A stretch of DNA of 32,000 bases from contig NZ_CP040006.1 of the NCBI RefSeq assembly GCF_005696695.1, positions 1,380,001 through 1,412,000 of the forward strand, written 5' to 3'. Shown in pieces: positions 5,027 through 20,395 of the stretch (positions are counted from its first letter, which is position 1; each line of letters begins with the position of its first letter). Under the pieces are notes generated by a model that was not told where the DNA came from, searched no databases, and saw only the letters and a list, made by a program, of their open reading frames with translations. The stretch comes from Schaalia odontolytica (lineage in GTDB: Bacteria; Actinomycetota; Actinomycetes; Actinomycetales; Actinomycetaceae). The position numbers and the translations under genes are program-made.

Positions 5027-7147
5027 TTACGCGTCGATACGCGTACGATCCAGCCCCGCGGATTCCTCGACGATAAACTCCTTGCGCGGGCCCACGGTCG
5101 AGCCCATGAGCAGCTCAAACACGTCCTCCGCCTGACGCAGGGCTTCCTCGTCGGCCAGCGTGATGCGACGCAGCGAGCGGTGAGCCCGGTCCATCGTGGT
5201 CTCAGCCAGCTGGTCGGCATCCATCTCGCCCAGGCCCTTGTACCGCTGGATGGGTTCCTTCCACGTGCGGCCCGAGCGACGCAGGGCGGCGAGCTTACGA
5301 TGCAGCTCGTCCTCGGAGTAGGTGTAGATGTACTCGCGCTTCTTGCGTCCCTTGCCTGCAACCTCGATGCGATGCAGGGGCGGGACGGCGGCGTAGATGC
5401 GGCCAGCCTCGACCATGGGGCGCATATAGCGGAAGAACAGGGTGAGCAGCAGGGTACGGATGTGCGCGCCGTCGACGTCGGCGTCGGTCATGAGGATGAC
5501 CTTGCCGTAGCGAGCCTGGGACAGGTCGAAGGTACGGCCCGAGCCCGCGCCGATCACCTGGATGATGTTGGCACACTCGGCGTTGGCCAGCATGTCCGCG
5601 GTCGAGGCCTTCTGCACGTTGAGGATCTTTCCTCGAATCGGGAACAGGGCCTGGTAGTGGGAGTTGCGCGCGGCCTTGGCCGTGCCCAGGGCGGAGTCGC
5701 CCTCGACGATGAAGAGCTCGGTCTCCTCGACGTCCTCGAGGCGGCAGTCCGCGAGCTTGGCGGGCAGCGAGGAGGTTTCCAGCGCGTTCTTCTTACGCGA
5801 GATCTCCTTGTGCAGGCGCGCGGAGACGCGGGCCTTCATCTCGCCGACGACCTTCTCCATGAGGAGGGAGGTCTGCTGCTTGTCGTCGCGCTTGGAGGAG
5901 GCGAACTTGGCCTTCAGCCAGTCGGAGACCACACGGTTGACGACGGTGCGAATCTGGGGAGTGCCCAGCGTTTCCTTGGTCTGTCCCTCGAACTGAGGCT
6001 CGGGGAAGCGCACGGTGATGACGGCCGTCATGCCGGCCTGGACGTCGTCTTTTTCGGGGCGCCCGTCCTTCGCGCCGACCTTGAGCTTGCGCGCATTCTT
6101 GTCGATCGCGGCACGCAGGGTCTTGAGGACTGCCTGCTCGAAGCCGGTGACGTGGGTGCCGCCCTTGGGGGTGGCGATGATGTTGACGAAGGACTGGACG
6201 GTCGTGTCGTAGCCGATGCCCCAGCGCAGCGCGATGTCGACCTCGCAGGTGCGCTCGACCTCGGTGGCGCGCAGGTGCCCGGTCTCGGAGTCCAGAGCCT
6301 GCACGGTCTCGTTGTAGGTACCCGCACCCGTGATGTGCCACGTGTCGGTGACGGGGCCGTCGGAGGCCAGCCAGTTCGCGAAGTCGACGACGCCGCCGTC
6401 GAAGCGGAAGCTCTCGTGAAGTTCCTCTTCGCCGCGCTCGTCGTAGCAGTTGATGGTCAGGCCGGGCACGAGGAACGCGGTCTGGCGGGCGCGCGCCAGC
6501 AGGTTCTCCCACGAGAACCCCTCGGTCGACGGGAAGATCTGGAAGTCCGCCCAGAAGCGCACGCGCGTGCCGGTCTGGGATTTCTTCACCTTGCCGACGG
6601 TCTTGAGCGTCGAGCCATCCACGAACGGCTTGAACGGCGAGTTGGGGGTGCGCTGCTTGGAGTCGTCGAATTCGCCGGGTTCGCCGCGGCGGAAGCACAT
6701 CTCGTGGGTCTTGCCGCCGCGGTCGACCTGCACGTCGAGGCGGGCCGACAGGGCGTTCACGACGGAGGCGCCGACGCCGTGGAGGCCGCCCGAGGCCGCG
6801 TAGGAGCCGCCGCCGAACTTACCGCCGGCGTGGAGCTTAGTGTAGACGACCTCGACGCCCGTCAGGCCCTGTCCGGGCACGATGTCGACGGGGATTCCTC
6901 GGCCGTTGTCGGCGACGGAGGCGGAGTGATCGGGGTGCAGGCGCACGTCGATCGTGTCGCAGTGGCCTTCCAGGGCCTCGTCGACCGCGTTGTCGATGAT
7001 CTCCCAGAGGCAGTGCATGAGGCCCCGATGGTCGGTGGAGCCGATGTACATGCCGGGGCGCTTGCGCACGGCTTCGAGCCCCTCGAGGACCGAGAGGTGC
7101 CGTGCGTTGTAGTCGGATGCGTCGGTAGGAGTCACGATGTGCATCAT
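5027..7147 (-). CDS. parE: Type IIA DNA topoisomerase subunit B (topoisomerase IV ParE / GyrB paralog)
   Basis: Motifs: VRKRPGMYIGS, GLHGVGASVVNALS, Toprim EGDSA, PIRGKILNV, DADVDGAHI. No adjacent A subunit in the window, hence parE-like rather than gyrB. Start trimmed to MMHIVTP (7147). The ORF-track extension to 7291 has no homology-like content. Confidence 0.85.
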   Translation of the reverse strand: MMHIVTPTDASDYNARHLSVLEGLEAVRKRPGMYIGSTDHRGLMHCLWEIIDNAVDEALEGHCDTIDVRLHPDHSASVADNGRGIPVDIVPGQGLTGVEVVYTKLHAGGKFGGGSYAASGGLHGVGASVVNALSARLDVQVDRGGKTHEMCFRRGEPGEFDDSKQRTPNSPFKPFVDGSTLKTVGKVKKSQTGTRVRFWADFQIFPSTEGFSWENLLARARQTAFLVPGLTINCYDERGEEELHESFRFDGGVVDFANWLASDGPVTDTWHITGAGTYNETVQALDSETGHLRATEVERTCEVDIALRWGIGYDTTVQSFVNIIATPKGGTHVTGFEQAVLKTLRAAIDKNARKLKVGAKDGRPEKDDVQAGMTAVITVRFPEPQFEGQTKETLGTPQIRTVVNRVVSDWLKAKFASSKRDDKQQTSLLMEKVVGEMKARVSARLHKEISRKKNALETSSLPAKLADCRLEDVEETELFIVEGDSALGTAKAARNSHYQALFPIRGKILNVQKASTADMLANAECANIIQVIGAGSGRTFDLSQARYGKVILMTDADVDGAHIRTLLLTLFFRYMRPMVEAGRIYAAVPPLHRIEVAGKGRKKREYIYTYSEDELHRKLAALRRSGRTWKEPIQRYKGLGEMDADQLAETTMDRAHRSLRRITLADEEALRQAEDVFELLMGSTVGPRKEFIVEESAGLDRTRIDA

Positions 7148-7383
7148 ATGTGGGTCAACGCTCGTTTGTGGCCAACGGTGCGCGTGGCGCGGGTTCTGGG
7201 ATGCTTTCCACGATTGACGAGGCCGGGGCCAGATCGCGCTGGGGGCGTACCGTTTCGGGGATGTTGGGGCTGTCGTTGGAGCGATTTCCACTCCCCCGTT
7301 TCATTGTGTCGGCGTGCGGGCGATCGATTGCGCCCCGGGTGAACAGGGGTGCGCGGGGCGGGGTGATGGTGTGTGATGGAAGC

Positions 7384-7599
7384 ATGAACGCACAGACTCT
7401 TGAACGCCCCGTACTGGACGAGCCGCAGCTCAGCGCGGCTAATCGTTGCGACGCCTGCGGCGCTCGCGCCTGGGTTCGTGCGACGATGCCTTCGGGTGGC
7501 CAGCTCTACTTCTGCGGCCACCACGCAAACGAGCACCTGCCCTCGCTGGTGGGCGCCGGCGCACAGATCCTGGACGAGCGTCATTTCATGAACGACTGA
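7384..7599 (+). CDS. Small Cys/His-rich conserved hypothetical protein (zinc-ribbon-like), divergent from parE
   Basis: 71 aa starting at MNAQTLERP. Contains CDACGARAW...YFCGHHANEH. A strong intrinsic terminator follows it. From memory it resembles the small actinobacterial proteins annotated DUF7455; not verifiable here. Confidence 0.55.
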   Translation: MNAQTLERPVLDEPQLSAANRCDACGARAWVRATMPSGGQLYFCGHHANEHLPSLVGAGAQILDERHFMND

Positions 7600-7640
7600 G
7601 AGCGAGCCTCCCGCAGCGGCGGGACGCACGGCTTGCAGGC

Positions 7641-7679
7641 GCGGGCGGGGACCGAGGGGTCCCCGCCCGCGTTTTTCTT
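7641..7679 (+). terminator. Rho-independent terminator
   Basis: GCGGGCGGGGACC-gagg-GGTCCCCGCCCGC is a 13-bp perfect stem. It is followed by GTTTTTCTT. Confidence 0.85.
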
Positions 7680-7854
7680 GCGCACATCGGTGTTGTACCC
7701 ATTTGCGATGCCTGCGTCACGAAACCGCTCCTGACCCGCACTTTTGATCCTCTCCCCCGCGCGCCTGTCAAAGAGCGCGTGGTACAGTTGCGAGCCGCTT
7801 TCGGGCACAAAAGGTGGCGAACTGACACACTGTCGCCCGCATTGGAGCAAAGCC

Positions 7855-8955
7855 ATGAAAATAGCGTGGAACGAAATTACATATCAACCAAAGAAGTTCG
7901 TTCTCATCGAGTTCCTGATCGCCACGCTCATGTTCATGGTCGTGTTCCTCTCGGGTCTCACCAACGGCCTCGGAGCCTCCGTGTCCGCGCAGATCACGAA
8001 CTACGGTCCCCTCACCTACGTCCTGTCGACGGACTCTGAGGGTGTCATCCCCTATTCGTCGGTGACCTCCGACGACATCGAGGCCCTCGAAGCGGCCGGC
8101 ATGCGCGACTACGCGAGCCTCGTCATCCAGCGCGCGACCATCACTCAGAACGACGACTCGAACACCCTGGACATCACGTACTTCGCGACGGATCACAACG
8201 ACGGTAACGTTCTCCAGCCGACCCTCATCGACTCCGACCTGACGATCTCCGATCTGGGAGACGACGAGGTCATCCTCGACAGCGCATTTGAGAACGAGGG
8301 CATCCACGTCGGGGATCGGGTGATCGACAAGATCTCGGAGCAGGAGCTCACGGTCGTCGCCTTCGCCTCGCGAGCCAACTACGGCTACAGCGACATCGGT
8401 TTCGTCAGCTCGCAGACCTACGCGGGTATGCGCACGGTGACCGTTCCGAACTACGAGTGGCAGGCCCAGACGGTCGTCACGTCGGATGAGATCGCGGAGG
8501 ACGCTCTTCCTGCTCATCTGATGACCGCGGACCGCCAGCAGGTCATCGATAAGATCCCCGGCTACAAGGCCCAGAACCTCACGCTGAAGATGATCACCTG
8601 GGTGCTCCTCGTGGCCTCGTCCGCGATCCTGGGTGTCTTCTTCTACATCCTCACCCTGCAGAAGCTGCGCCAGTTCGGCGTCCTCAAGGCGATCGGCATG
8701 CCGATGCGCACCATTACCTACATTCAGATCTCCCAGCTGACGATCATCTCGATCATCGGCGTCACGATCGGTCTCGGCCTCGCCGCCGCCATGGCGCCGT
8801 TCCTACCGAGCACGGTCCCTTCCATCATGACGCTCGCGGACAACGTCACCGTCGCGATCAGCTTCGTCGTGACCTCGATCCTGTGCGGTGCGCTGTCGCT
8901 GCTGAAGATCAAGAAGGTGGATCCCATCGAAGTCATCGGCGGAAACGGAGAATAA
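7855..8955 (+). CDS. ABC transporter permease, FtsX/MacB-like (N-terminal TM, large extracytoplasmic domain, C-terminal 3-TM FtsX domain)
   Basis: ATG at 7855 (MKIAWNEITYQPKKF...). One N-terminal TM helix, a roughly 230-aa hydrophilic domain, then a hydrophobic C-terminal bundle (LVASSAILGVFFYIL...GVLKAIGM...). The partner ATPase follows immediately. Confidence 0.8.
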   Translation: MKIAWNEITYQPKKFVLIEFLIATLMFMVVFLSGLTNGLGASVSAQITNYGPLTYVLSTDSEGVIPYSSVTSDDIEALEAAGMRDYASLVIQRATITQNDDSNTLDITYFATDHNDGNVLQPTLIDSDLTISDLGDDEVILDSAFENEGIHVGDRVIDKISEQELTVVAFASRANYGYSDIGFVSSQTYAGMRTVTVPNYEWQAQTVVTSDEIAEDALPAHLMTADRQQVIDKIPGYKAQNLTLKMITWVLLVASSAILGVFFYILTLQKLRQFGVLKAIGMPMRTITYIQISQLTIISIIGVTIGLGLAAAMAPFLPSTVPSIMTLADNVTVAISFVVTSILCGALSLLKIKKVDPIEVIGGNGE

Positions 8956-8956
8956 A

Positions 8957-9640
8957 GTGGCAATCATCGAACTGGATTCGATCGGAAAGTCCTACGCCGA
9001 CGGCGACCAGACGCACCGCGTGCTGAGTGGCCTCAGCCTGAGCGTCGACCCCGGCGAGTTCGTGGCAATCCTGGGGCCGTCCGGTTCCGGAAAGTCAACG
9101 CTCCTGTCCATCGCAGGCCTACTCCTGTCGGCCGACGAGGGGTGCATCTCCATCGCCGGCCAGGACCTGACCCAGCTCAGCCAGAAGCAGTGGACGCGCA
9201 AGCGCCTGGAGCTCCTGGGCTTCATCTTCCAGGACCACCAGCTGCTCCCCTACATGCGCATCGGCGATCAGCTCGAGCTCGTCGCCAAGCTCAAGGGGCA
9301 GAAGGACAAGGCCGCACGTCAGGCCGAGGTCCGCGCTCTCATGGAGGACCTGGGGATCGAGGCCTCCTACGCCAAGTACCCGCGCCAGATGTCGGGCGGC
9401 CAGAAGCAGCGCGCAGCGATCGCTCGTGCCTTCATCGGAAACCCGCAGCTGATCCTCGCCGACGAGCCGACCGCGAGCCTGGACCCGGATCGTGGCCAGG
9501 AGATCGCCCAGCTGATCTGCAAGGAAGTGAAGTCGAAGAATAAGAGCGCCATCATGGTGACGCATGATCGCTCGATCCTGCCCTACGTGGACACGATCTA
9601 CGAGCTCACGCACGGCACGCTGACCAGGCTCGAGGCCTGA
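8957..9640 (+). CDS. ABC transporter ATP-binding protein (MacB/LolD-type)
   Basis: Walker [11 protein letters not shown]-loop, signature MSGGQKQR, Walker [10 protein letters not shown]-loop MVTHD. The GTG start is 1 nt after the permease stop. Confidence 0.9.
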
Positions 9641-9722
9641 GAGCGGCGAGCGTTCCAGGCGCATAGCAGCAACGGCACCGGTGGGGATCTCCTGAGAAGA
9701 CACACAGGGGGTCCCCACTGCT

Positions 9723-10010
9723 TTATGCCTTCAGTGCTAGCAGGCCGTCAGAAATGAAACGACGCACAAGCTCACTGCGGGTTTGTCCGAGTTCCCCGGC
9801 AGCCTCGTCGAGCTCTCGAACTAGGGATTCGGGCAGGCGCGTGCCGACCGGCATCGTGTCCTCGCCGAAGAGCTGCGGACGACCCGGCAGGACCTTCCAC
9901 GATCCGTCGCATTCGCCCGCTTCGAAGCGCTGAGCATCTGCTTCAAGGTCAGCGTCGGTAACGGTGATCCCTCCCGCGAGACGGTAGGTCCCCTCTTGTT
10001 TCTTGCTCAT
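9723..10010 (-). CDS. Ribbon-helix-helix (CopG/BrnA-like) putative antitoxin
   Basis: 95 aa. The C-terminal segment VGTRLPESLVRELDEAAGELGQTRSELVRRFISDGL fits a beta-strand/helix/helix RHH pattern. It overlaps the upstream ORF by 4 nt (ATGA). Confidence 0.6.
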   Translation of the reverse strand: MSKKQEGTYRLAGGITVTDADLEADAQRFEAGECDGSWKVLPGRPQLFGEDTMPVGTRLPESLVRELDEAAGELGQTRSELVRRFISDGLLALKA

Positions 10011-10291
10011 TGCCCTCTCCTCTCAGGTCCAAATACTTCGGTCATCATTTTCTTTGAAGGCGGTGTCATCGCGTGATAGATGAGAATCGTGCCATCTTCT
10101 TGCAGAGCAGCAAGGAGTTCTAACAGCCGCCCGTTCCTGTCGTATCCCAGCGCAGCGTATGCGGGCCAGTACGGTGAGTCCACGCGTTCGGCGCACTCGA
10201 CTGCATACACCCATGCGTGAATCGCATCTTCGTCGGCGATCTCAGGATGTCGCGCGCTCACGCGCGGATGGACAACAACCGGCACGTCCAT
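10007..10291 (-). CDS. Small putative toxin partner (BrnT/DUF4258-like organisation; family uncertain)
   Basis: 94 aa, with GGAGGTGA upstream of the ATG. The layout HP.I...D..HAW...G.D.NGRLLE......DGT.LIYHAM recalls small RelE/BrnT-fold toxins. It is translationally coupled to the RHH gene. Family assignment is from memory only. Confidence 0.45.
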   Translation of the reverse strand: MDVPVVVHPRVSARHPEIADEDAIHAWVYAVECAERVDSPYWPAYAALGYDRNGRLLELLAALQEDGTILIYHAMTPPSKKMMTEVFGPERRGQ

Positions 10292-10322
10292 CGGCGCCTC
10301 ACCTCCCCTGCGACCATGCCAG

Positions 10323-10342
10323 GAATTTCGTTAACAAAATTC
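10323..10342 (-). promoter_or_regulatory. 20-bp near-perfect palindrome overlapping a -10-like TAGAAT: candidate operator of the toxin/antitoxin operon
   Basis: GAATTTCGTTAACAAAATTC has one mismatched pair. It lies 32-51 nt upstream of the toxin ATG. On the minus strand it overlaps TAGAAT (10339-10344). The patch is locally AT-rich in a GC-rich background. Confidence 0.45.
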
Positions 10343-10431
10343 TAACGCTGTCCTCACGGGCGTGCTGGTCAATGCAATCAATGGTCGATCGAAGCCAGGA
10401 ACGGTGACCATCGCCCGAGAAAGCCGCTCCC

Positions 10432-10619
10432 CTAGTCTGCGAGGCGCTGGGAGACCACCGTCGTGACGCCGTCGCGCATCGTGACGCCATAGAGGGCATC
10501 CGCGATCTCCATCGTGCGCTTCTGGTGCGTGATGACAATCAGCTGCGAGGTCTCCTGCAGCTCCTTGAAAATCGCCAGCAGGCGCGTCAGGTTCATGTCG
10601 TCCAGGGCGGCCTCGACCT
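10432..10619 (-). pseudogene. Truncated extra copy of the smc 3' end (last ~62 codons plus stop)
   Basis: Gap-free alignment to 14936-15123. I count 7 mismatches in 188 nt, 6 of them synonymous in the smc frame. It encodes ...[61 protein letters not shown]. Confidence 0.9.
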
Positions 10620-10833
10620 GGACTCCGATCCTCAGACTGGACCCGTATGGAACTCAAGAAATCACCCGGATGATCTGCAAGCAGGTGAAGTCCAAGAACA
10701 AGAGCGCCAGCATCGTGACGCACGATCGCCCGATCCTGCCCTAGGTGGACACGATCTACGAGCTCACGCACGGCACGCGCACCAAGCTCGAGGCCTGCGC
10801 GCGGCGAGCGCTCCATGCACAGGGAAGCTACGA
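10617..10833 (+). pseudogene. Truncated, decayed extra copy of the ABC-ATPase 3' end
   Basis: 10637-10798 aligns gap-free to 9479-9640, with 24 mismatches in 162 nt by my count. Tyr TAC has become TAG at 10742-10744, and the stop TGA has become TGC at 10796-10798. Similarity continues about 35 nt past the stop. 10620-10636 is an imperfect re-copy of the breakpoint sequence. Confidence 0.85.
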
Positions 10834-11021
10834 CATTGGAAAGAACCGATGCCGCCGCGACACCTATCTAGTGAGCGATGACGCCCCTTCGAACACCCCA
10901 AGAGCGCGGGAAACAACAATCAGATCAGATGCTCTAACGCTCCACGACCGCACCGCATAGCCATGTTGAATGGAACAAAGTCCACACGCCAACTTGTATT
11001 TGAAGCAAACCTGCAGGATGT

Positions 11022-11048
11022 TTGACAGTTACGGCGCATCCGTACACT
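11022..11048 (+). promoter_or_regulatory. Candidate promoter of the island operon
   Basis: TTGACA (11022-11027), a 15-nt spacer, then TACACT (11043-11048), about 45 nt upstream of the ATG at 11094. The spacing is short for sigma-70, so this is weakly supported. Confidence 0.3.
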
Positions 11049-11093
11049 AAAAGTGCTACGGTTCAGAAAAGTTCACCGACGAACGGAACGACC

Positions 11094-13115
11094 ATGAAAC
11101 TAAAATCCGTGCGGATACAGGGATACAGAGCCCACAAAGACACAACAGTAACGCTTGACAACGACCTTACCGTCATAGTCGGACGTAACAATACCGGAAA
11201 AACATCATTCATCGAAATCATCGATAAGTTCATCGGCGCAAATAAGAGAAACGGTATTCACGCGACGGACTTTTCTGCAGACCAACGCACTCAACTATTT
11301 AAATACGTACACAACAGAAGTAAGAAAACGAAAACGGAACAACTCATTCCAACAATCACTTTGACACTCAGTATCGACTACAGCCTCCAAGAAGATTCCG
11401 CTGAAGACATTGCCACCATCGCTCCATACTTCACCACTCTCGACACCACGTGCACAACGCTCGAAATTGTATGTAGATACGCACCTTCTAATGAAGAGTC
11501 TATAAAACGCGCGCTATCCGAAGTGCGAACAATGAGAGACAGGGATAAAGAAGATAAAATCTTGAGCCTCATTGAAAACTACGGAGAATACAAGACCACA
11601 TACAGCGCTCAATCAACCTTTGACGATCCCGAATTAGAAAAGCCAAACGAAGCTTGGGTCCTCACCAAAGAAGAAGTGCGAGCTATCGTGAATACTGAGT
11701 ACATCTACGCTCAGATCAACCTCGACGATACATCCACAGACAACAGTCACCATTTATCGTCCGCATTTGAACGCTTTTACAAAGAAGTCGCAGAAGATAC
11801 CGAGCTACGACAAAGTCTAGATGATCGTATAGATGACATGCAGTCCACGCTATCAACAGCATATACTAACTTTTTCGAAGAAGCTCTCGACCAAATCCAA
11901 CGCTTTACAAGCGTTACGAGCGCAGGATCATTGACACTCAAAGTTGAATCAGAGTTGAACACTTCACGAATGATTAACTCGACGACACGAGTAAAATATA
12001 CCGATAATGCATCGAGCCAAACCTACCCCGAGTCTCACAACGGCTTGGGATACTCAAGACTGACGTACACGATCCTGCAAATCCTCGCCTTCAAGGAACG
12101 TTGGAAGCACGCACAACGATTAACACCGATCAACATACTTTTTATTGAAGAACCCGAGGCACACCTCCATCCGCAGATGCAGGAGGTCTTCATTCGCCTT
12201 GTAAGCAACCTCCTCGACAGAGGCAGCCAACTTATCGTCACCACGCACTCTTCACACGTGCTGAGCGAACGCAATCTCAAGAGTCTACGCTACTTTAAAC
12301 GCATCAACACCAGTGTTACATGCAACGATATCTCAAAATGGGCAGTCAAATTAAAAAAGGACGACATCAAAGCTTACACCACGGTTTCGAACTACGTTCA
12401 ACTAAGAATCTCTGACCTATTTTTTGCAGACTGCGCGATCCTAGTCGAAGGCGCAGCGGAACGACTATTACTTCCTAAGGCGATTCAAACCAGCTGCCCT
12501 ATTCTCCGCTCGATCCACTACACAATTATTGAAGTTGGCGGAACCTACGCGCGACATATCATTCCTTTATTGGAAGAGATCGGCCTCCCGTCGATCGTTA
12601 TTACGGACATTGACAGCGTCGAAGACAAGCAACATGGAAAGAAAGTCGAACCACACCCATCAGCCAAACAGCGATGTGGAAATCCAACCATCACTCGTTA
12701 TTTACCCAACCGTTCGATCAAGGAACTTCTGACTCTCAACACAGTAGATAAAGTACACAATGGACTTATACGCATATGCTACCAAGCCGAACCAGATAGT
12801 TACAAATCGCCACGAAAATACGCACGCACATTAGAAGATGCCTTGATATACGCGAATGCCCAGCTGTTCACATCGACAGGCTTTCAAGACCATTTTGAAG
12901 AGCCAGTAATGAAGGAGAAGCTAAAAGAACAACATAACGCAAAAGGAATAGCTAAGGAAGCCTATAGCATTGTGACAGACGACCGCTTCCAAAAAACGAC
13001 ATTCGCTATCGATTGCAGCCTAATGGACGATCTCACGATTCCCCCTTACATCAAAGAGGGACTGACATGGCTTGAAGAAGTGTTAACAATCACTCCGTTA
13101 ACGCTCAATGACTAA
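11094..13115 (+). CDS. gajA: OLD-family ATP-dependent endonuclease (ABC-type ATPase + C-terminal Toprim), GajA-like
   Basis: 673 aa from MKLKSVRIQGY. Walker A GRNNTGKTS (aa 30-38), Walker B ILFIEEPEAHLHP (aa ~348-360), H-loop VTTHSSH. Toprim Glu in AILVEGAAERLLLP (aa ~449-461), DxD in VITDIDS (aa ~502-508), and a later RTLEDAL. The ORF-track start at 11022 falls in the promoter-like TTGACA and is rejected. Confidence 0.8.
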   Translation: MKLKSVRIQGYRAHKDTTVTLDNDLTVIVGRNNTGKTSFIEIIDKFIGANKRNGIHATDFSADQRTQLFKYVHNRSKKTKTEQLIPTITLTLSIDYSLQEDSAEDIATIAPYFTTLDTTCTTLEIVCRYAPSNEESIKRALSEVRTMRDRDKEDKILSLIENYGEYKTTYSAQSTFDDPELEKPNEAWVLTKEEVRAIVNTEYIYAQINLDDTSTDNSHHLSSAFERFYKEVAEDTELRQSLDDRIDDMQSTLSTAYTNFFEEALDQIQRFTSVTSAGSLTLKVESELNTSRMINSTTRVKYTDNASSQTYPESHNGLGYSRLTYTILQILAFKERWKHAQRLTPINILFIEEPEAHLHPQMQEVFIRLVSNLLDRGSQLIVTTHSSHVLSERNLKSLRYFKRINTSVTCNDISKWAVKLKKDDIKAYTTVSNYVQLRISDLFFADCAILVEGAAERLLLPKAIQTSCPILRSIHYTIIEVGGTYARHIIPLLEEIGLPSIVITDIDSVEDKQHGKKVEPHPSAKQRCGNPTITRYLPNRSIKELLTLNTVDKVHNGLIRICYQAEPDSYKSPRKYARTLEDALIYANAQLFTSTGFQDHFEEPVMKEKLKEQHNAKGIAKEAYSIVTDDRFQKTTFAIDCSLMDDLTIPPYIKEGLTWLEEVLTITPLTLND

Positions 13116-14871
13116 CGAAGATACCAATATGAATAGCGAAATATTTGCATCAATTCGGTGCGGCAAGAATTTTATTTTCGAAGCGGGGCCAGGCTCCGGA
13201 AAGACAACCTCACTCATTCAAACGCTACGAAAGATACTTGACCAACCCGGCGACACCATCAACACGCAGAAACAGAAGATCGCTTGCATTACGTTTACGA
13301 ATGTTGCTGCCAACGAAATCATCGAGCGCCTCGATGACGATTCTAACGTCGTTCAGGTGTCGACGATTCACAGCTTCCTCTGGAATCAGATTAAGCCCTA
13401 TCAATCAGAGCTATGTGACATCATCACCAGCATAAACAATGATCCGAACAGGCCCGCGAAAAAGATCATCTCAAACCTCGATCTCAACGGCATCGAGATT
13501 CGATACGTCGACGGATACGCCGATCTAACAAAAGGCGAAATTTCCCACGATGATGTGCTGGAAATTGCATATCACATGTTCAAACATCACCCGGTCCTGG
13601 GTCACGTTACCAGGTGCCGATATCCAATCGTATTCTTAGACGAATATCAAGACACTCAGCCAATTGTTATCGACACGCTAAAACATATCCTTACGCTCGA
13701 ACCAAGAGCAGACTTCGGATACGCGCGATTCTTAGTCGGACTGTTTGGCGATTCCATGCAGAGTATTTACAACACCGGAATCGGAAGCGTGCAGCCCACC
13801 GACCTAAACGCGGTCACAATCACCAAAACTGACAACCATCGTTCAACAGACACAATCGTTAACTTGATTAATGCGGTTCGCGCAAGGAGCAAGGAAGCAA
13901 TGCCTGTGATCCAAACCGCAACAAGACCCGATCAGCCCTCTAGTTCCAGATGTTCCCTATATTACACAACCGACAACGTCGAGGTGACTCATTCGACGCT
14001 TGAATCCATTTCTAGACATTTCGGCTGGATACTCGGCATGGATACCAAGATACTCGAGCTGACCCATTCAGCAATTTCACGCACAGCCGGCTGGAATAGT
14101 CTTCACAGCGCAATAAACGATCGCAGTCGTTACGCATTGGACGACTTTCGAAAAGGAGACGACATTTATTCCAGTATTTTTTCTTTTTTAACTAGGTTAT
14201 ACAGAGCCTGGTCTGCCGATGACGGCTTCGAAGCACTCAACTTACTTAGATTCCATTCACCCGGATCACTGAGAGAAAGGACGTTGTTCGGTTCGAGTGA
14301 CGAAATGCAGCACTGGTCCTCACTTCTCGACGAATTCACAACGCGTTGTTCATCACGCGATCTTACACAATGTTCCATTTCGTCGATTCTCAACTTTGCC
14401 TGGGATAACGATATTTGCAAACAGGATTTTCGAATTGCACAATATCTGGAACGAACGGACTTTCAGAACGAGGAACATAAGGTACGGCGCGACAACTTCA
14501 TCCACGCTCTTGATTCTATTCCTTTTTCGGAATTACTCAAGTTTTCCGAATACCTGGATAAGACAAGCCCTTTTTCCACTGAGCATGGCACAAAGGGAGC
14601 AGAATATGACAACGTGATTCTCATCATTGATGATAAGACTTGGAAACACCAGTACAGGGTCTCAGCTCTATTTGGTTCAGACGACCATATTGATGCTCGT
14701 AAAGAAAGAACACTGAGACTATTTTATGTTGCAATTTCACGCGCACGGAACAATCTTGTCGTCGTTTACAAGAATCCTACAGCTGATAGTATTGCCGGCG
14801 CCGAGGAACTATTTGGCACAAACAACGTCCAGCCACTTGAGGAGATCTTGCCCGACATCGCTATTTCTTAG
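13108..14871 (+). CDS. gajB: UvrD/PcrA/Rep-like superfamily 1 helicase, GajB-like
   Basis: 587 aa. Motif I EAGPGSGKTT, Ia ITFTNVAANEI, STIHSFLW, II VFLDEYQDT, III LFGDSMQSIY, IV DNHRST, and C-terminal HGTKGAEYDNV and LFYVAISRARNNLVVV. The ATG overlaps the gajA-like stop by 8 nt. An alternative ATG is at 13129. Confidence 0.8.
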   Translation: MTNEDTNMNSEIFASIRCGKNFIFEAGPGSGKTTSLIQTLRKILDQPGDTINTQKQKIACITFTNVAANEIIERLDDDSNVVQVSTIHSFLWNQIKPYQSELCDIITSINNDPNRPAKKIISNLDLNGIEIRYVDGYADLTKGEISHDDVLEIAYHMFKHHPVLGHVTRCRYPIVFLDEYQDTQPIVIDTLKHILTLEPRADFGYARFLVGLFGDSMQSIYNTGIGSVQPTDLNAVTITKTDNHRSTDTIVNLINAVRARSKEAMPVIQTATRPDQPSSSRCSLYYTTDNVEVTHSTLESISRHFGWILGMDTKILELTHSAISRTAGWNSLHSAINDRSRYALDDFRKGDDIYSSIFSFLTRLYRAWSADDGFEALNLLRFHSPGSLRERTLFGSSDEMQHWSSLLDEFTTRCSSRDLTQCSISSILNFAWDNDICKQDFRIAQYLERTDFQNEEHKVRRDNFIHALDSIPFSELLKFSEYLDKTSPFSTEHGTKGAEYDNVILIIDDKTWKHQYRVSALFGSDDHIDARKERTLRLFYVAISRARNNLVVVYKNPTADSIAGAEELFGTNNVQPLEEILPDIAIS

Positions 14872-14935
14872 GCGATTGTTAATAGTGGCTTCTGTATAAC
14901 TGGCTCGTTTCCTTTTGCGTCCTTAATGAAGTTTC

Positions 14936-17900
14936 CTAGTCCGCGAAGCGCTGGGACACCACCGTCGTGACGCCGTCGCGCATCGTGACGCCGTAGAGGG
15001 CATCCGCGATCTCCATCGTGCGCTTCTGGTGCGTGATGACGATGAGCTGCGAGGTCTCCTGCAACTCCTTGAAAATCGCCAGCAGGCGCGTCAGGTTCAT
15101 GTCGTCCAGGGCGGCCTCGACCTCGTCCATGACGTAGAACGGGGACGGGCGCGCCTTGAAGATCGCGACCAGGAACGCGATCGCGGCCAGGGAACGCTCG
15201 CCGCCCGACAGCAGGGACAGGCGCTTGACCTTCTTGCCCGCGGGGCGAGCCTCGATCTCGATGCCGGTCGAGAGCATGTCGTCCGGGTCGGTGAGCACCA
15301 GGTCGCCCTGGCCGCCCGGGAACAGCACGCCGAACACGTGCTCGAACTGCTCGCGCGTCTCGGCGAAGGCCGACGCGAAGGCCTCCTCCACCAGGCGATC
15401 CACGTCCTGCACGATGCGAAGCAGGTCCGCCTTCGAAGCTTTGAGGTCCTGGACCTGGTCCACCAGGAACTTGTGTCGCGAGGCCAGCGCCTCGTGCTCC
15501 TCGAGCGCCAGGGGGTTCACGCGCCCCAGCTTCTCCAAGTCCTTCTGTGCCTTGGCGAGCGCTCGTTCCTGCTCGGCGCGCACGTAGGCGCTCGGCTCGG
15601 CGGCTGCGGCCTTCTCAACCTGGTCGGGGTCGAGCGGCAGCATCGGCACCAGCATCTGCGGCCCGAACTCGGCGAGCAGCTGCTCGGGCTCGAGAGACAG
15701 TTCTTCGAGGGCGCGCCGTTGCAGATCCTCGACACGCAGGCGCGTCTGTTCGGCGGCTATCTGCCCCTGGTGGGCCGAGGCCGTGGCCTCCGACAGCTCG
15801 GCGCTCAGCCGGTCCAGGGCGCGGCGTGCGTCCGAGACCTCCTGGGAGACCTGGGAGCGTCGCTCACTCAGGCGGTCGCGCTCGGCGGCAGCCTGAGCCA
15901 GGGCGCGCTCGGCGGCCTCGAGGGCGACGCGGGCTGCGGCCTCCACGTCCGAGGCCGTGGCCAGCTCCGTCTTGCGCGCGGCCTCGCGCCGGGCGTAGCG
16001 GGCGCGCTCCTCGCGCTCGGCGGCGGCTGCTTGGCGCAGGGAGCGGGCGCGGGAGGCGGCGCGCCGCGATTGCTCTTCGAGGGCTCGCAGGCTCAGGCGC
16101 GCCTCGTTTTCGGCCTCGCGGGCCTCGCGTGCCGCCCGTGAGGCGGCATCCGCGCGGGCCTGGGCGTCTTCGAGGGACTCGGGCGGGCCGACGGTGTCGG
16201 CACCGTCGAGGCGTGCGCGCGCAGCCACGTCCTGCTCGCGGGCCCAGGTCACTTGCTCGTCGGCGCGGCGTGCCACATCGTGGGCGCGCTCTGCTTCGGC
16301 TCGGGCGGCCTGCGCGGCCGACTGGGCGCGGGCCAGCTCCTGGGCTTCCTTGGCGCGCTGCGCGTCTTCCTCGCGCAGGGCCTTCAGGGCGTCGTTTGCC
16401 TCGCGGATGCAGCGGTCCAGGTGGGCGTTTGCCTCGCTGAGCTGCTCGGAGACCTCGGCCATGCGGGCCCGAGCGGCCTCGGCCAGCGCGTAGGCCTCCT
16501 CGTAGTCTGCGCGCACGGAGAGCACGGAGGAGGCCTGGCGGCCACCCTCCACCGACCAGGAGCGCAGCACGTCGCCGCCCGACGTGACGACGGCGCGCAC
16601 GCCTGGCATGTCCAGCACGTCAGCGGCGGCCTCAAGCGAGCACGCGACAACCCCGTCCAGCAGGGACGCGAGCGGAGCTGCGGCCCCCTCGCAGACGACG
16701 ACGTCGGACAGCCACGTCGCACCCTCGGGCAGATCGGCACGGACGGCCCCGATGGTCCCCTCTGCGGGACCATCAGAAGGACCGGAAGAATCAGATGCCA
16801 CGACCAACCGCAGCGAGCGCCCGGCCGCGCGGGCGGCGTCCAGCTCGCCCAGGCCTCGGGCGAGGGAGTCGACGACGACGGCGTCGGCGAAGGGAGCCAG
16901 CGCCGCGGCGACGGCGTCCTCGAAACCGGGGGTGACGTGCAGGAGGGGCGCGACCTGGCCGAGCACGCCGGGGCGTCCCAGCAGCTCGGCGGTGCCGTCC
17001 TCGGGGGCGAGCAGCTGCTCAAGCGCGTCGCGGCGCGCCTCCCAGCGCGCGCGGTCGGCCCGCGCCTCGCGTTCGATGCCGAGCAGCTCGTCCACGCGGG
17101 CACGCGCGGCGTCGCGGCGGGCGGAGGCCTCGGCGTGTGCGCGGGCCGCTCCCCCGCTGGCTTCTTCCTCGGACGAGGCCCCCTCAGCAACATCAACAGA
17201 GCCCACAGACGACGCGGGCACTGCCTTCTCGGCAGCCTCGGCGCGCTCCTGGGCCGCGCGGTAGGCGCCCCACGCGCGGTCGGCCTCGGCGATGGCGGCC
17301 TCTAAGCGAGACGCGGCCGTGGAGGCGTCGCCCGTCAGGCGCGCGACCTTCTCGCGGTGGTCGGCAATGACGCGGTTGACGCGGGCCAGCTCGCGCGACG
17401 CGGAATCGTCGGCATCCTCCGCGGCCTCGCGCGCACGAGTCGCGGACGTCAGTGCGGAGCGTGCGGCTTCGACCTGGCCGGCCAGGGCCGCATCCTCGGC
17501 GCCGGCGATGCGGGCGCGCTCGTCAAGCACGTCGGGGTCCTCGCCGCCCGGGGGCAGCTCGGGGGTCGCCCGCAGCGAGACCTTCTGGGTCGCAGCCATC
17601 AGCGTGCCGCGCAGGCGCTCGGTGATCGTGGTCAGCGCCTGCCAGTCGGAGGATGCCTGCTCGAGCGCCGGCGAGGAGGCACGCTCAGCGTCCTCCAGGC
17701 GCGCTAGCTCGGCGCGCGCGGCTGCAATCTGTTCCTCGAGCGAGGCCCGGCGGGCGGCGGCCGACTCGTCCGATGCCTCGAGCACGGATAGCTTCGACAG
17801 CGCAGACGCCAGGTCATCGGCGAGCAGGCGGGCCTTCGCGTCGCGCACGCGCGCCTGAATGAGGGACGCGCGACGAGCAACCCGCGCCTGGCGAGCCAGG

Positions 17901-18511
17901 GGCCCCAGCTGGCGGTGAATCTCGTTCGTCAGGTCCAGGACGCGCACGAGGTTCGCGTCCATGTCGGCCAGCTTCTTGAGCGCGCGCTCCTTGCGCCGGC
18001 GATGCTTGAGGACGCCCGCGGCCTCTTCGATGAATCCGCGACGCTCCTCGGGCGTAGAGGACAGAATCGCGTCGAGCTGCCCCTGGCCGACGATGACGTG
18101 CATCTGACGGCCCATGCCCGTGTCGGAGAGGAGCTCCTGCACGTCCAGCAGCCTCGCCGGAGTGCCGTTAATGGAGTATTCGGAGCCGCCCCCACGGAAC
18201 AGGGTACGGCTGATCGTGACCTCGGAATACTCGATGTCGAGCAACCCGTCGGTGTTGTCAATCGTCAGGTCCACCTGGGCGCGCCCCAACGCCGCGCGCC
18301 CAGATGTCCCCGCGAAAATCACGTCCGCCATTTGCCCGCCGCGCAGCGCGCGGGCACCCTGCTCGCCCATGACCCAGGCGAGAGCGTCGACGACGTTGGA
18401 TTTACCCGACCCGTTGGGGCCGACGACGCACGTGATGCCCGGTTGGAGGGCGAGCGTGGTCGCACTGGCGAAGGACTTAAAGCCCCGCAGCGTCAGGTTT
18501 TTGAGGTACAC
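14936..18511 (-). CDS. smc: Chromosome segregation protein SMC
   Basis: 1191 aa. N-terminal MYLKNLTLRGFKSF...GPNGSGKSN, a long Ala/Arg/Glu coiled coil with a central hinge, and C-terminal LSGGERSL and FYVMDEVEAALD. Confidence 0.95.
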   Translation of the reverse strand: MYLKNLTLRGFKSFASATTLALQPGITCVVGPNGSGKSNVVDALAWVMGEQGARALRGGQMADVIFAGTSGRAALGRAQVDLTIDNTDGLLDIEYSEVTISRTLFRGGGSEYSINGTPARLLDVQELLSDTGMGRQMHVIVGQGQLDAILSSTPEERRGFIEEAAGVLKHRRRKERALKKLADMDANLVRVLDLTNEIHRQLGPLARQARVARRASLIQARVRDAKARLLADDLASALSKLSVLEASDESAAARRASLEEQIAAARAELARLEDAERASSPALEQASSDWQALTTITERLRGTLMAATQKVSLRATPELPPGGEDPDVLDERARIAGAEDAALAGQVEAARSALTSATRAREAAEDADDSASRELARVNRVIADHREKVARLTGDASTAASRLEAAIAEADRAWGAYRAAQERAEAAEKAVPASSVGSVDVAEGASSEEEASGGAARAHAEASARRDAARARVDELLGIEREARADRARWEARRDALEQLLAPEDGTAELLGRPGVLGQVAPLLHVTPGFEDAVAAALAPFADAVVVDSLARGLGELDAARAAGRSLRLVVASDSSGPSDGPAEGTIGAVRADLPEGATWLSDVVVCEGAAAPLASLLDGVVACSLEAAADVLDMPGVRAVVTSGGDVLRSWSVEGGRQASSVLSVRADYEEAYALAEAARARMAEVSEQLSEANAHLDRCIREANDALKALREEDAQRAKEAQELARAQSAAQAARAEAERAHDVARRADEQVTWAREQDVAARARLDGADTVGPPESLEDAQARADAASRAAREAREAENEARLSLRALEEQSRRAASRARSLRQAAAAEREERARYARREAARKTELATASDVEAAARVALEAAERALAQAAAERDRLSERRSQVSQEVSDARRALDRLSAELSEATASAHQGQIAAEQTRLRVEDLQRRALEELSLEPEQLLAEFGPQMLVPMLPLDPDQVEKAAAAEPSAYVRAEQERALAKAQKDLEKLGRVNPLALEEHEALASRHKFLVDQVQDLKASKADLLRIVQDVDRLVEEAFASAFAETREQFEHVFGVLFPGGQGDLVLTDPDDMLSTGIEIEARPAGKKVKRLSLLSGGERSLAAIAFLVAIFKARPSPFYVMDEVEAALDDMNLTRLLAIFKELQETSQLIVITHQKRTMEIADALYGVTMRDGVTTVVSQRFAD

Positions 18512-19757: not shown

Positions 19758-20395
19758 GCCGCGCCGGCCTCGCCCGCTGCTCGCACGGCGGCGCGCAGGA
19801 TGAGGGAGGTGGACACAGCACCCGGGTCGAGGTGTCCGATGGAGCGTTCGCCCAGGTAGGAGGCGCGTCCCTTCGTGGCCCGCATGGGTTCCGTCGCTGC
19901 GGCTCCGGCCTCTGCGGCGGTGGCGGCGGCCTCAAGGACGGCCACGGGATCGCTACCGGCCTCGGCGGCCGCGCGGGCGGCCTCAAGGGCCGGCGTCCAC
20001 GCGTCCACCATGGTCTTTTCACCCGTGGTGGCCTTGCCTCGGGCCTGGATTCCGTCGAGCGCGCCCGCGATCACCGCTGCCACGCCCGCGCTGTCGAGCT
20101 CGCCGTCACCGGCGGCCTTCGATGCGCGCAGGAATGCCGTCCCGTACAGGGGCCCGGCGGCGCCGCCGACCGTGGACATGAGGGTCTTGGCGACCGTCTT
20201 GAGGACCTCGGCGATGCTGCCCGGCTGGGCTTGGCCGAGGGCCTCGACGGCGGCCTTGAATCCGCGGTCCATGTTTTCGCCGTGGTCGCCATCCCCGATG
20301 GCTCGGTCCAGGTCCACCAGGTAGTCGCGCTGCTCAGCGACCTGCGCCGCCGCCAGGTCGATCCACCGGCGTGCCCACGCTGCATCTAGGCTCAT
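19754..20395 (-). CDS. dhaL: Dihydroxyacetone kinase ADP-binding subunit DhaL
   Basis: 213 aa. Contains DLDRAIGDGDHGENM and GGAAGPLYGT motifs. AAGGAGAAAC lies upstream of the ATG. Confidence 0.9.
   Translation of the reverse strand: MSLDAAWARRWIDLAAAQVAEQRDYLVDLDRAIGDGDHGENMDRGFKAAVEALGQAQPGSIAEVLKTVAKTLMSTVGGAAGPLYGTAFLRASKAAGDGELDSAGVAAVIAGALDGIQARGKATTGEKTMVDAWTPALEAARAAAEAGSDPVAVLEAAATAAEAGAAATEPMRATKGRASYLGERSIGHLDPGAVSTSLILRAAVRAAGEAGAA

Follow-up and report, generated by a model that had tools for sequence, protein, structure and literature searches.

The window, by which we mean the whole 32,000-nucleotide stretch of Schaalia odontolytica DNA that was analysed, contains two gene cargos between a full-length ABC ATPase gene and the full-length chromosomal smc, and the two cargos are separated by truncated copies of the 3′-ends of both flanking genes (Table 1). 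The first cargo, in slot 1, is a putative toxin-antitoxin-like (TA) pair in which orf94 and RHH95 overlap by 4 nt; orf94 has no Pfam or PADLOC match, and the pair as a whole has no PADLOC match. The second cargo, in slot 2, is a predicted Gabija anti-phage system, consisting of an OLD-family ATPase with a TOPRIM domain (GajA) and a UvrD-like GajB encoded downstream, with 8 nt shared by the two genes. The GC content of the Gabija genes is 45.6% (~45% for gajA), as compared with 64% for the window. Gene callers place the start of gajA at 11094. The synteny of smc with ndk and the dha genes is kept in all loci compared, which are numbered here with the prefix L.

Table 1. Features of the smc-gyrB interval, with positions given in window coordinates
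Feature	Position	Strand	Description
gyrB/parE-like gene	5027-7291	-	
FtsX/MacB-type permease	7744-8955	+	Pfam FtsX, MacB_PCD; upstream of hotspot
Full-length ABC ATPase	8957-9640	+	Pfam ABC_tran, 1.8e-32
ABC 3′-end	9467-9677	+	Parent-type copy of the ABC-tail repeat; slot-1 left homology arm
TA-like pair, orf94 + RHH95	9723-10291	-	Slot-1 cargo
RHH95	9723-10010	-	Ribbon-helix-helix, 95 aa; Pfam RHH_1, 6e-07
orf94	10007-10291	-	Slot-1 cargo
Native spacer, smc stop to orf94	10292-10430	-	Continuous with the relic, as in TA-only genomes
smc 3′-end relic (s′)	10431-10619	-	Last 62 codons and stop; left copy of 189-bp direct repeat
Junction (J)	10617-10636		CCT microhomology and 17-nt filler partly re-copying the ABC breakpoint
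ABC-ATPase 3′-end relic (B3)	10637-10798	+	Pseudogene; slot-2 left homology arm
Post-stop ABC homology (to ~10835), then Gabija-linked upstream region	10799-11021	+	Collinear with L012 and L121
gajA	11022-13115	+	Slot-2 cargo (predicted); PADLOC GajA 4.7e-142, full length; Pfam AAA_15, OLD-like_TOPRIM
gajB	13108-14871	+	Slot-2 cargo (predicted), UvrD-like helicase; PADLOC GajB 1.6e-124; Pfam UvrD-helicase, UvrD_C
Functional smc 3′-end	14935-15123	-	Right copy of 189-bp direct repeat
Full-length chromosomal smc	14936-18511	-	1191 aa; Pfam SMC_N 1e-68, SMC_hinge; hotspot right flank
ndk			Beyond smc in the gene order

A self-repeat search of the window returned an ungapped match of 189 nt (96% identity) between 10431-10619 and 14935-15123, the two copies of the smc 3′-end, and an ungapped match of 211 nt (82% identity) between 10625-10835 and 9467-9677, the two copies of the ABC 3′-end. 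With BLAST E-values of 3e-85 and 6e-48, respectively, both repeats proposed in the first-pass annotation are significant, and its mismatch counts were reproduced exactly: the smc tails differ at 7 of 188 nt, six of the differences being synonymous and the seventh an F/L change, and the ABC tails (10637-10798 versus 9479-9640) differ at 24 of 162 nt, with a Tyr codon changed from TAC to TAG at 10742-10744 and the stop codon changed from TGA to TGC at 10796-10798. The similarity that had been described as reaching about 35 nt past the ABC stop decays over ~35-40 nt, to ~10835. The order full ABC, cargo 1, smc tail, ABC tail, cargo 2, full smc, with the two tails joined head-to-tail at a microhomology, was also correctly read at that stage. 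Short-read Logan contigs are expected to break at repeats of this kind.

The two relics meet at a CCT trinucleotide (10617-10619) that is common to the smc and ABC parents and is followed by a 17-nt filler (10620-10636). This filler had been interpreted as an imperfect re-copy of the ABC breakpoint, and the alignment bears this out. The CCT together with the start of the filler, CCTGGACTCCGAT, matches the ABC breakpoint at 9478-9490 at 11 of 13 positions (shuffle p ~0.0004), and a second copy of that breakpoint, ACTGGACCCGTAT, is present 19 nt after CCTGGACTCCGAT; the first 10 nt of the filler thus continue the ABC breakpoint, and the ABC sequence restarts 7 bases further on. The earlier statement that both breaks fall within D-loop codons is approximately true. 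The ABC break is at the L of SLD, and the smc break is at the Walker-B Glu codon, immediately 5′ of the VEAALD D-loop.

The source strain is the cultured isolate S. odontolytica XH001, and the window is 100% identical to LLVT01000003.1 from the XH001 draft genome. XH001 (Actinomyces/Schaalia odontolytica), an oral bacterium, is the host of the Saccharibacteria epibiont TM7x (PMC4742689). The junction is not confined to this isolate. It is identical in 16 other contigs that originate from several projects, including one PromethION long-read assembly; 12 of the 16 are metagenome contigs identified by exact matches to a 37-mer that spans the junction. An independent metagenome scaffold (L093) aligns to the window with 97.1% identity over 9.2 kb, with the scar inside that single alignment, and the junction is base-identical in L093 and in three JGI contigs (L121-L123), among them one from an HMP sample. 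The long-read contig L128 (BNJV01001055.1), assembled with Flye from PromethION reads averaging 13 kb (PMC7782811), carries FtsX, ABC, TA, relic, junction, ABC tail, Gabija and smc, the same order as in the window. The junction, for which the first-pass annotation had sought support from spanning reads, is thus common to the genome of an isolate, to short-read assemblies made independently and to one PromethION/Flye contig.

Alleles with a single cargo, predicted on the basis of the window, were identified for both cargos. In nine TA-only loci (L111-L119, of which L113 is the complete genome CP102197.1) the alignment with the window runs unbroken through 5028-10619 or 9249-10619 and then resumes at 14935, so that one 189-nt stretch serves both smc-tail positions of the window; identity to the window is 85% for CP102197.1 and 91-97% for contigs of the same species. 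On these alignments, the window is a TA-only allele to which 4,504 bp have been added, and this extra segment, which the 189-bp smc repeat delimits, consists of the filler, the ABC tail, gajA/gajB and an smc tail. The TA pair in TA-only alleles is directly downstream of smc, and alignment with L112 identifies the relic, together with the spacer outside it, as the native junction between smc and the TA pair. Two loci (L094 and L097) are Gabija-only. Their ABC fragment is resident-like up to ~9530 and from there identical to the relic, including the TAG and the TGC, and they appear to have the structure expected of a crossover between a full ABC gene and the relic that would delete the TA pair and the smc relic. 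The ABC tail is also Gabija-linked in L012, L094 and L121.

Variation at the locus extends beyond the cargos. The FtsX permease is an accessory component, absent in S. meyeri and S. cardiffensis (L011, L014) and deleted in several alleles in which window position 7675 is joined to ~9249. In S. cardiffensis gyrB lies ~660 bp after smc, and in S. meyeri the smc-gyrB gap is ~2 kb and lacks FtsX-ABC; the whole smc-gyrB interval is, on this evidence, a variable hotspot.

The same junction lies between different cargos on both sides, and so has a single old origin and is not a recent event private to the window genome. The cargo on the left side of the relic is the TA pair in the window and five other loci (L093, L125, L128, L132, L133) and a different pair, X126/X103, in ten (L121, L122, L124, L126, L127, L129-L131, L134, L135). 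To the right of the ABC tail, the Gabija version of the window recurs in L093 and L128, a second version with ~53% aa identity is present in L121-L126, L129 and L135, and a third with ~73% aa identity in L127 and L131. Three further loci have other cargos in this position: an NsnA-like GmrSD protein and a HEPN RiboL-PSP protein in L133, a ParA-like ATPase with ISL3 transposase remnants in L130, and the TA pair itself in L134. The ABC relic of L134 starts with the diverged segment described below, changes to resident type and continues into the native ABC-TA spacer; the TA pair, accompanied by its own flanks, can therefore occupy either of the two slots. L125 is 98-100% window-like from the junction to +400 and from there 92-98% like the ~53% Gabija version, and L131 equals L121 up to +200 and then switches. 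The switches in these three loci place the breakpoints inside or just after the ABC relic and imply that left cargo, linker and right cargo assort independently. These exchanges are deduced by comparing contigs, a large share of which are metagenomic and short (5-15 kb). The Gabija versions, at 53-73% identity, are too diverged to recombine with each other, and swaps would then plausibly occur through the short flanks. The later exchanges probably took place by homologous recombination following DNA uptake. Identity in the linker core is 91.5-100% versus 87-98% in the relic; strong conservation of the core was considered as a sign of recent spread, and this was dropped as the difference between core and arm is modest and would also suit old vertical inheritance combined with local replacement.

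Six of the seven differences between the window smc relic and the functional smc are alleles of functional smc genes elsewhere, and the differences between the two smc tails of the window are accordingly allelic. The stop-proximal alleles of the functional smc (C, A, C) are those of the Gabija-linked type, as in L094, and those of the relic (T, G, G) are of the type found in other functional smc genes. To this extent the suggestion that the extra tail is a second allele from a related genome holds; its corollary, that this copy is not decaying, is to be qualified by the comparison across lineages. Among the loci with the junction, private changes in the smc relics are 16 non-synonymous to 8 synonymous, versus 7 to 46 in functional smc tails (Fisher p = 5e-6), and the relics of L123, L125 and L132 have indels. 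The smc relics decay neutrally across lineages. The ABC tail B3, with 14 non-synonymous and 5 synonymous codon changes, is a pseudogene.

The changes in the ABC relic are distributed as 13 mismatches in the 54 nt next to the junction (10637-10690, designated w) and 11 in the distal 108 nt (10691-10798). All 13 changes in w are fixed in every locus with the junction and differ from every ABC allele compared. They alter 7 of the 16 residues of a motif that is otherwise near-invariant, also in streptococcal homologues; the w motif is absent from all of the 120 best full-length ABC homologues, nearly all of which keep the resident motif, a few being single-residue variants. A search for the donor of w with the 54-aa translation of the relic matched only junction-spanning ORFs. 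On the smc side, the 59 nt closest to the junction have no fixed change, and the divergence of w is therefore not decay that followed the join. We infer that the donor fragment carried this divergence beforehand or that the joining itself introduced it, and in both cases a straightforward tandem copying of functional resident genes becomes less likely.

Two other junctions occur at this locus. In L012 (Actinomyces sp. ICM47 MAG), which has the same left flank as L121, a relic of ~39 nt is followed by ~45 nt of filler, an ABC pseudogene that starts from the Walker-A region and then the ~53% Gabija version. In the L002-L009 clade a relic of ~122 nt is joined to AT-rich DNA with two genes (495 and 465 aa), and the last ~10 nt of the functional smc, including the stop codon, cannot be aligned with the window smc. 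Judged from these sequences, similar events have occurred at the locus at least three times, each with different breakpoints. As the L012 and L002-type junctions break at other positions, the D-loop coincidence at the window junction is unlikely to be mechanistic.

These observations are best accommodated, with a probability that we put at about 0.75, if the segment 10431-10835 is the inherited scar of one illegitimate join, functioning as an arm-duplicating linker that converted the locus into a two-slot hotspot. The ancestral locus would have had a single cargo, in the order FtsX-ABC, TA, smc. The donor piece would have come from the same locus in another strain and contained an ABC tail, Gabija and an smc 3′-end; the insert does have donor-type flanks, namely the Gabija-linked ABC tail and the Gabija-linked stop-proximal smc alleles. 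Entry would have required a single crossover by homology within smc, together with a single illegitimate join, with microhomology and partly templated filler, that connected a 5′-truncated smc 3′ fragment to the 5′-truncated and already diverged 3′ fragment of the ABC-ATPase gene. This could have occurred by Campbell-type insertion of a circularised fragment, one of the two routes put forward in the first-pass annotation, or by homology-facilitated illegitimate recombination (HFIR) of a linear fragment. The smc-tail alleles do not discriminate between the Campbell and HFIR routes, the inner four variable sites being alike in both candidate parent types. By either route, the new cargo would be added, the old one kept and the displaced smc tail left behind.

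The smc tail, junction and ABC tail would then constitute a linker that doubles both homology arms of the hotspot, giving two slots, each of which has an ABC tail as its left border and an smc tail as its right border. Each slot could be refilled from any allele in the population that has a single slot, by ordinary homologous recombination, and recombination between the repeats could pop out one cargo: s′ with smc would yield a TA-only locus through loss of 4,504 bp, and ABC with B3 a Gabija-only locus through loss of ~1.16 kb. With smc homology on both sides, the linker-plus-cargo unit would be portable and could enter naive genomes through its smc arms.

The alternative with the best claim against this origin, although still unlikely, is the other route that had been proposed, a microhomology-mediated tandem duplication; in the version considered here, an unequal exchange between sister chromosomes duplicates the resident interval, and homologous recombination later replaces one cargo copy by Gabija. 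It would yield an identical topology, microhomology and filler at the join fit an illegitimate exchange, and later replacement of cargos through the arms is documented above. It would also predict equal decay on the two sides of the join, whereas the 54 nt of w carry 13 fixed changes and the adjacent 59 nt of the smc relic none, and kilobase-long identical repeats, when fresh, would presumably be lost quickly. Of the two routes offered earlier, Campbell-type insertion thus stays a candidate, beside HFIR, and simple duplication within the genome is disfavoured.

It is less probable still that the linker has been kept for a function of its own, for example as a TA promoter within the smc tail or through the product of an ORF that spans the junction. 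The smc 3′-end is immediately upstream of orf94 in TA-only alleles, loci with a shorter relic (the L002 type and L012) have a partly deleted or degenerate TA pair, and a join-crossing ORF of 49-67 aa (P0001-P0003) is called in several lineages. The substitutions in the relics are nevertheless near-random and accompanied by the indels noted above, no promoter-like site was found in 9600-11100, the junction ORF of the window is cut at the TAG, and there was no Rfam match above noise, the mir-933 match scoring 21.8 bits against a gathering score of 100.

Direct repeats of a gene 3′-end around foreign low-GC DNA are the classic signature of site-specific integration, and the Gabija genes with their ABC tail could, on that model, be a degenerate element directed to the smc 3′-end and bringing a replacement smc end, with the 189-bp repeats as attL and attR and an integrase acting in trans. 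We consider this very improbable, and reject integrase-mediated insertion. No recombinase or integrase was found in the insert or within ±10 kb of it, in any locus or allele compared; on its left, the supposed element ends in a piece of the allelic neighbour gene of Gabija, attached by a microhomology-plus-filler join; relics from independent events, at 189, ~122 and ~39 nt, have different inner ends and so no fixed core; and the cargo to the left of the relic varies too. An integron-like cassette array was also dismissed, there being no integrase, and the repeated elements being gene fragments rather than attC sites. That the scar is an assembly chimera of mixed strains has a negligible probability and is excluded: XH001 short-read Logan contigs are interrupted at the repeats, with L010 ending at 10322 and L096 and L092 starting at 10749 and 11013, respectively, but the DNA came from a cultured isolate and the junction recurs in the 3%-diverged strain L093 and 15 more contigs from different assemblers and projects, with the matching gene order in the long-read Flye contig L128.

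The inherited scar resembles products of HFIR and insertion-duplication, processes reportedly studied as laboratory transformation events. In the summary of this work given in PMC5361080 (de Vries & Wackernagel 2002; Prudhomme et al. 2002; Meier & Wackernagel 2003), HFIR shares with the present case a homologous anchor, here smc, an illegitimate join at a short GC-rich microhomology and the addition of foreign DNA without any mobile-element enzyme, and Campbell-type insertion-duplication shares the duplicated target segment. Unlike the laboratory HFIR events summarised there, the scar represents a natural allele of long standing, one that has been maintained, has spread and now serves as a substrate for further exchange. 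A homologous anchor combined with an illegitimate join has also been described for T6SS effector-immunity displacement arrays and for Rhs/CDI orphan arrays, in which older modules are displaced, truncated fragments are left and the arrays move by homologous recombination (Kirchberger et al. 2017, PMC5361080). The addition of modules, displacement of older ones and retention of truncated gene fragments are common to those arrays and this locus. The T6SS/Rhs/CDI arrays, which hold immunity genes, are anchored in the same toxin gene, through its conserved 5′-part, whereas the scar consists of relics of two unrelated convergent flanks, smc and the ABC ATPase, that are arranged head-to-head and double both arms of a defence hotspot.

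Core hotspots, and the distinction between replacement and additive flexible islands, are said to be the subject of work by Hochhauser et al. 2023 and Oliveira et al. 2017. The smc-gyrB interval is like core defence hotspots in having variable, mostly defence-type, low-GC cargo between conserved flanks and no integrase, and in that exchange is ascribed to homologous recombination in the flanks. It also has a feature of integrative elements, which enter a gene at its 3′-end and restore that gene, leaving attL and attR repeats: gene-3′-end direct repeats bracket acquired DNA with the target gene intact. It departs from them in having no integrase and no fixed core, in its microhomology-filler join and in a left end that is a fragment of an allelic neighbour gene. 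Core defence hotspots devoid of mobile-element markers have been described, and their build-up is stated as an open question by Johnson et al. 2023 (PMC10250203), in whose text no word for duplicated, truncated or remnant sequence occurs and which therefore gives no description of duplicated flank fragments inside an island. Compared with such hotspots, the scar reveals the step by which a replacement site, with room for one cargo, turned into an additive site with room for two. The class of event is thus already known, and a linker from both convergent flanks that doubles the arms of a defence hotspot without mobile-element genes appears to be new.

For annotation, short ORFs with SMC_N or ABC_tran matches within islands should be treated with caution, as they can be flank relics that record the history of the island. 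XH001 is a cultured and genetically tractable strain with a saturated transposon library (PMC12369343), and this makes slot replacement and the two pop-outs directly testable. More generally, and tentatively, relics of both flanks placed head-to-head may convert a site of the replacement kind into an additive array with several slots, each refilled independently of the others by plain homologous recombination, a possible general route by which defence islands could be built and shuffled without mobile elements. The locus provides a sequence-resolved case of island build-up in which a single illegitimate join would have doubled the recombination arms, and natural strains display, on both sides of the join, the combinatorial cargo expected of doubled arms.

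In some of the related loci from other genomes or metagenomes (L numbers, see table), the left slot of the hotspot, between the full-length ABC gene and the smc relic, holds a divergent gene pair, X126 and X103 (cargo X), in place of the TA-like pair orf94-RHH95. X126 has a weak Sigma70_r4-like HTH. Towards its C-terminus (about residues 56-103), X103 is 50-70% identical to the N-terminal part of RHH95, so cargo X is possibly a diverged relative of the TA-like pair.

Cargo also varies in the right slot, between the ABC-tail relic and the functional smc. The GmrSD_N-HEPN gene cluster of L133 has a GC content of 43%, and the transposase remnants in L130 adjoin genes for a ParA-like (AAA_31) ATPase and a 222-aa unknown protein. 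In a sister clade (L002 to L009), two AT-rich genes occupy the position of Gabija; no Pfam family was found for them, PADLOC returned only faint matches (about 1e-4 to 1e-5), to LmuA plus an MBL-type model, and they may constitute an undescribed defence pair. These strains also have orf94 deleted, and the last ~10 nt of their functional smc, stop codon included, show no alignment to those of the window. Within the window, GC rises to 75-79% in the coiled-coil part of smc (15700-17700) and is about 65% at its head-domain ends. Downstream of ndk, GC-rich coding sequence contains a 33-nt direct repeat, 85% identical, with a spacing of 51 nt (19905-19988).

The ORF that crosses the junction of the two relics is called a hypothetical protein by gene callers. 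It encodes 49 aa in the window versus 67 aa in L121, and is probably spurious.

Positions of hotspot features in the window and in related loci
Feature	Position	Strand	Remarks
FtsX-ABC pair	window 7744-9640; L136 3896-5690		
Deletion junction	window 7675/~9249		carriers L112, L115-L119, L094, L097
Junction-crossing ORF (P0001-P0003)	window 10595-10744	+	ATG start; antisense strand of smc relic into ABC-tail frame
Cargo X (X126, X103)	L121 89-815; L126 1066-3618		left slot
GmrSD_N (DUF262) protein, NsnA-like, then HEPN RiboL-PSP protein	L133 3688-5891		right slot; PADLOC 2.3e-71 for NsnA-like protein
ISL3-family transposase remnants	L130 3334-6457; L134 6756-8333		inside right slot
AT-rich genes (495 and 465 aa)	L002 11608-14552		also L003-L009

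In an allele that recurs among the loci, FtsX is missing together with the 5' end of the ABC gene (~100 codons), and the deletion endpoints agree within about 11 nt (BLAST) across TA-only and Gabija-only backgrounds. The FtsX-ABC pair is also absent from the smc-gyrB interval of Schaalia meyeri and S. cardiffensis. The full-length ABC ATPase has 82-84% protein identity to proteins named Streptococcus parasanguinis, Streptococcus australis or Streptococcus sp. by NCBI. Together with this protein identity, a nucleotide identity of 70% and the GC contents of the two copies, in the window and in L136 (61.6% versus 46.4%), each matching its own host, suggest an old transfer of FtsX-ABC between oral Actinomycetota and Streptococcus.
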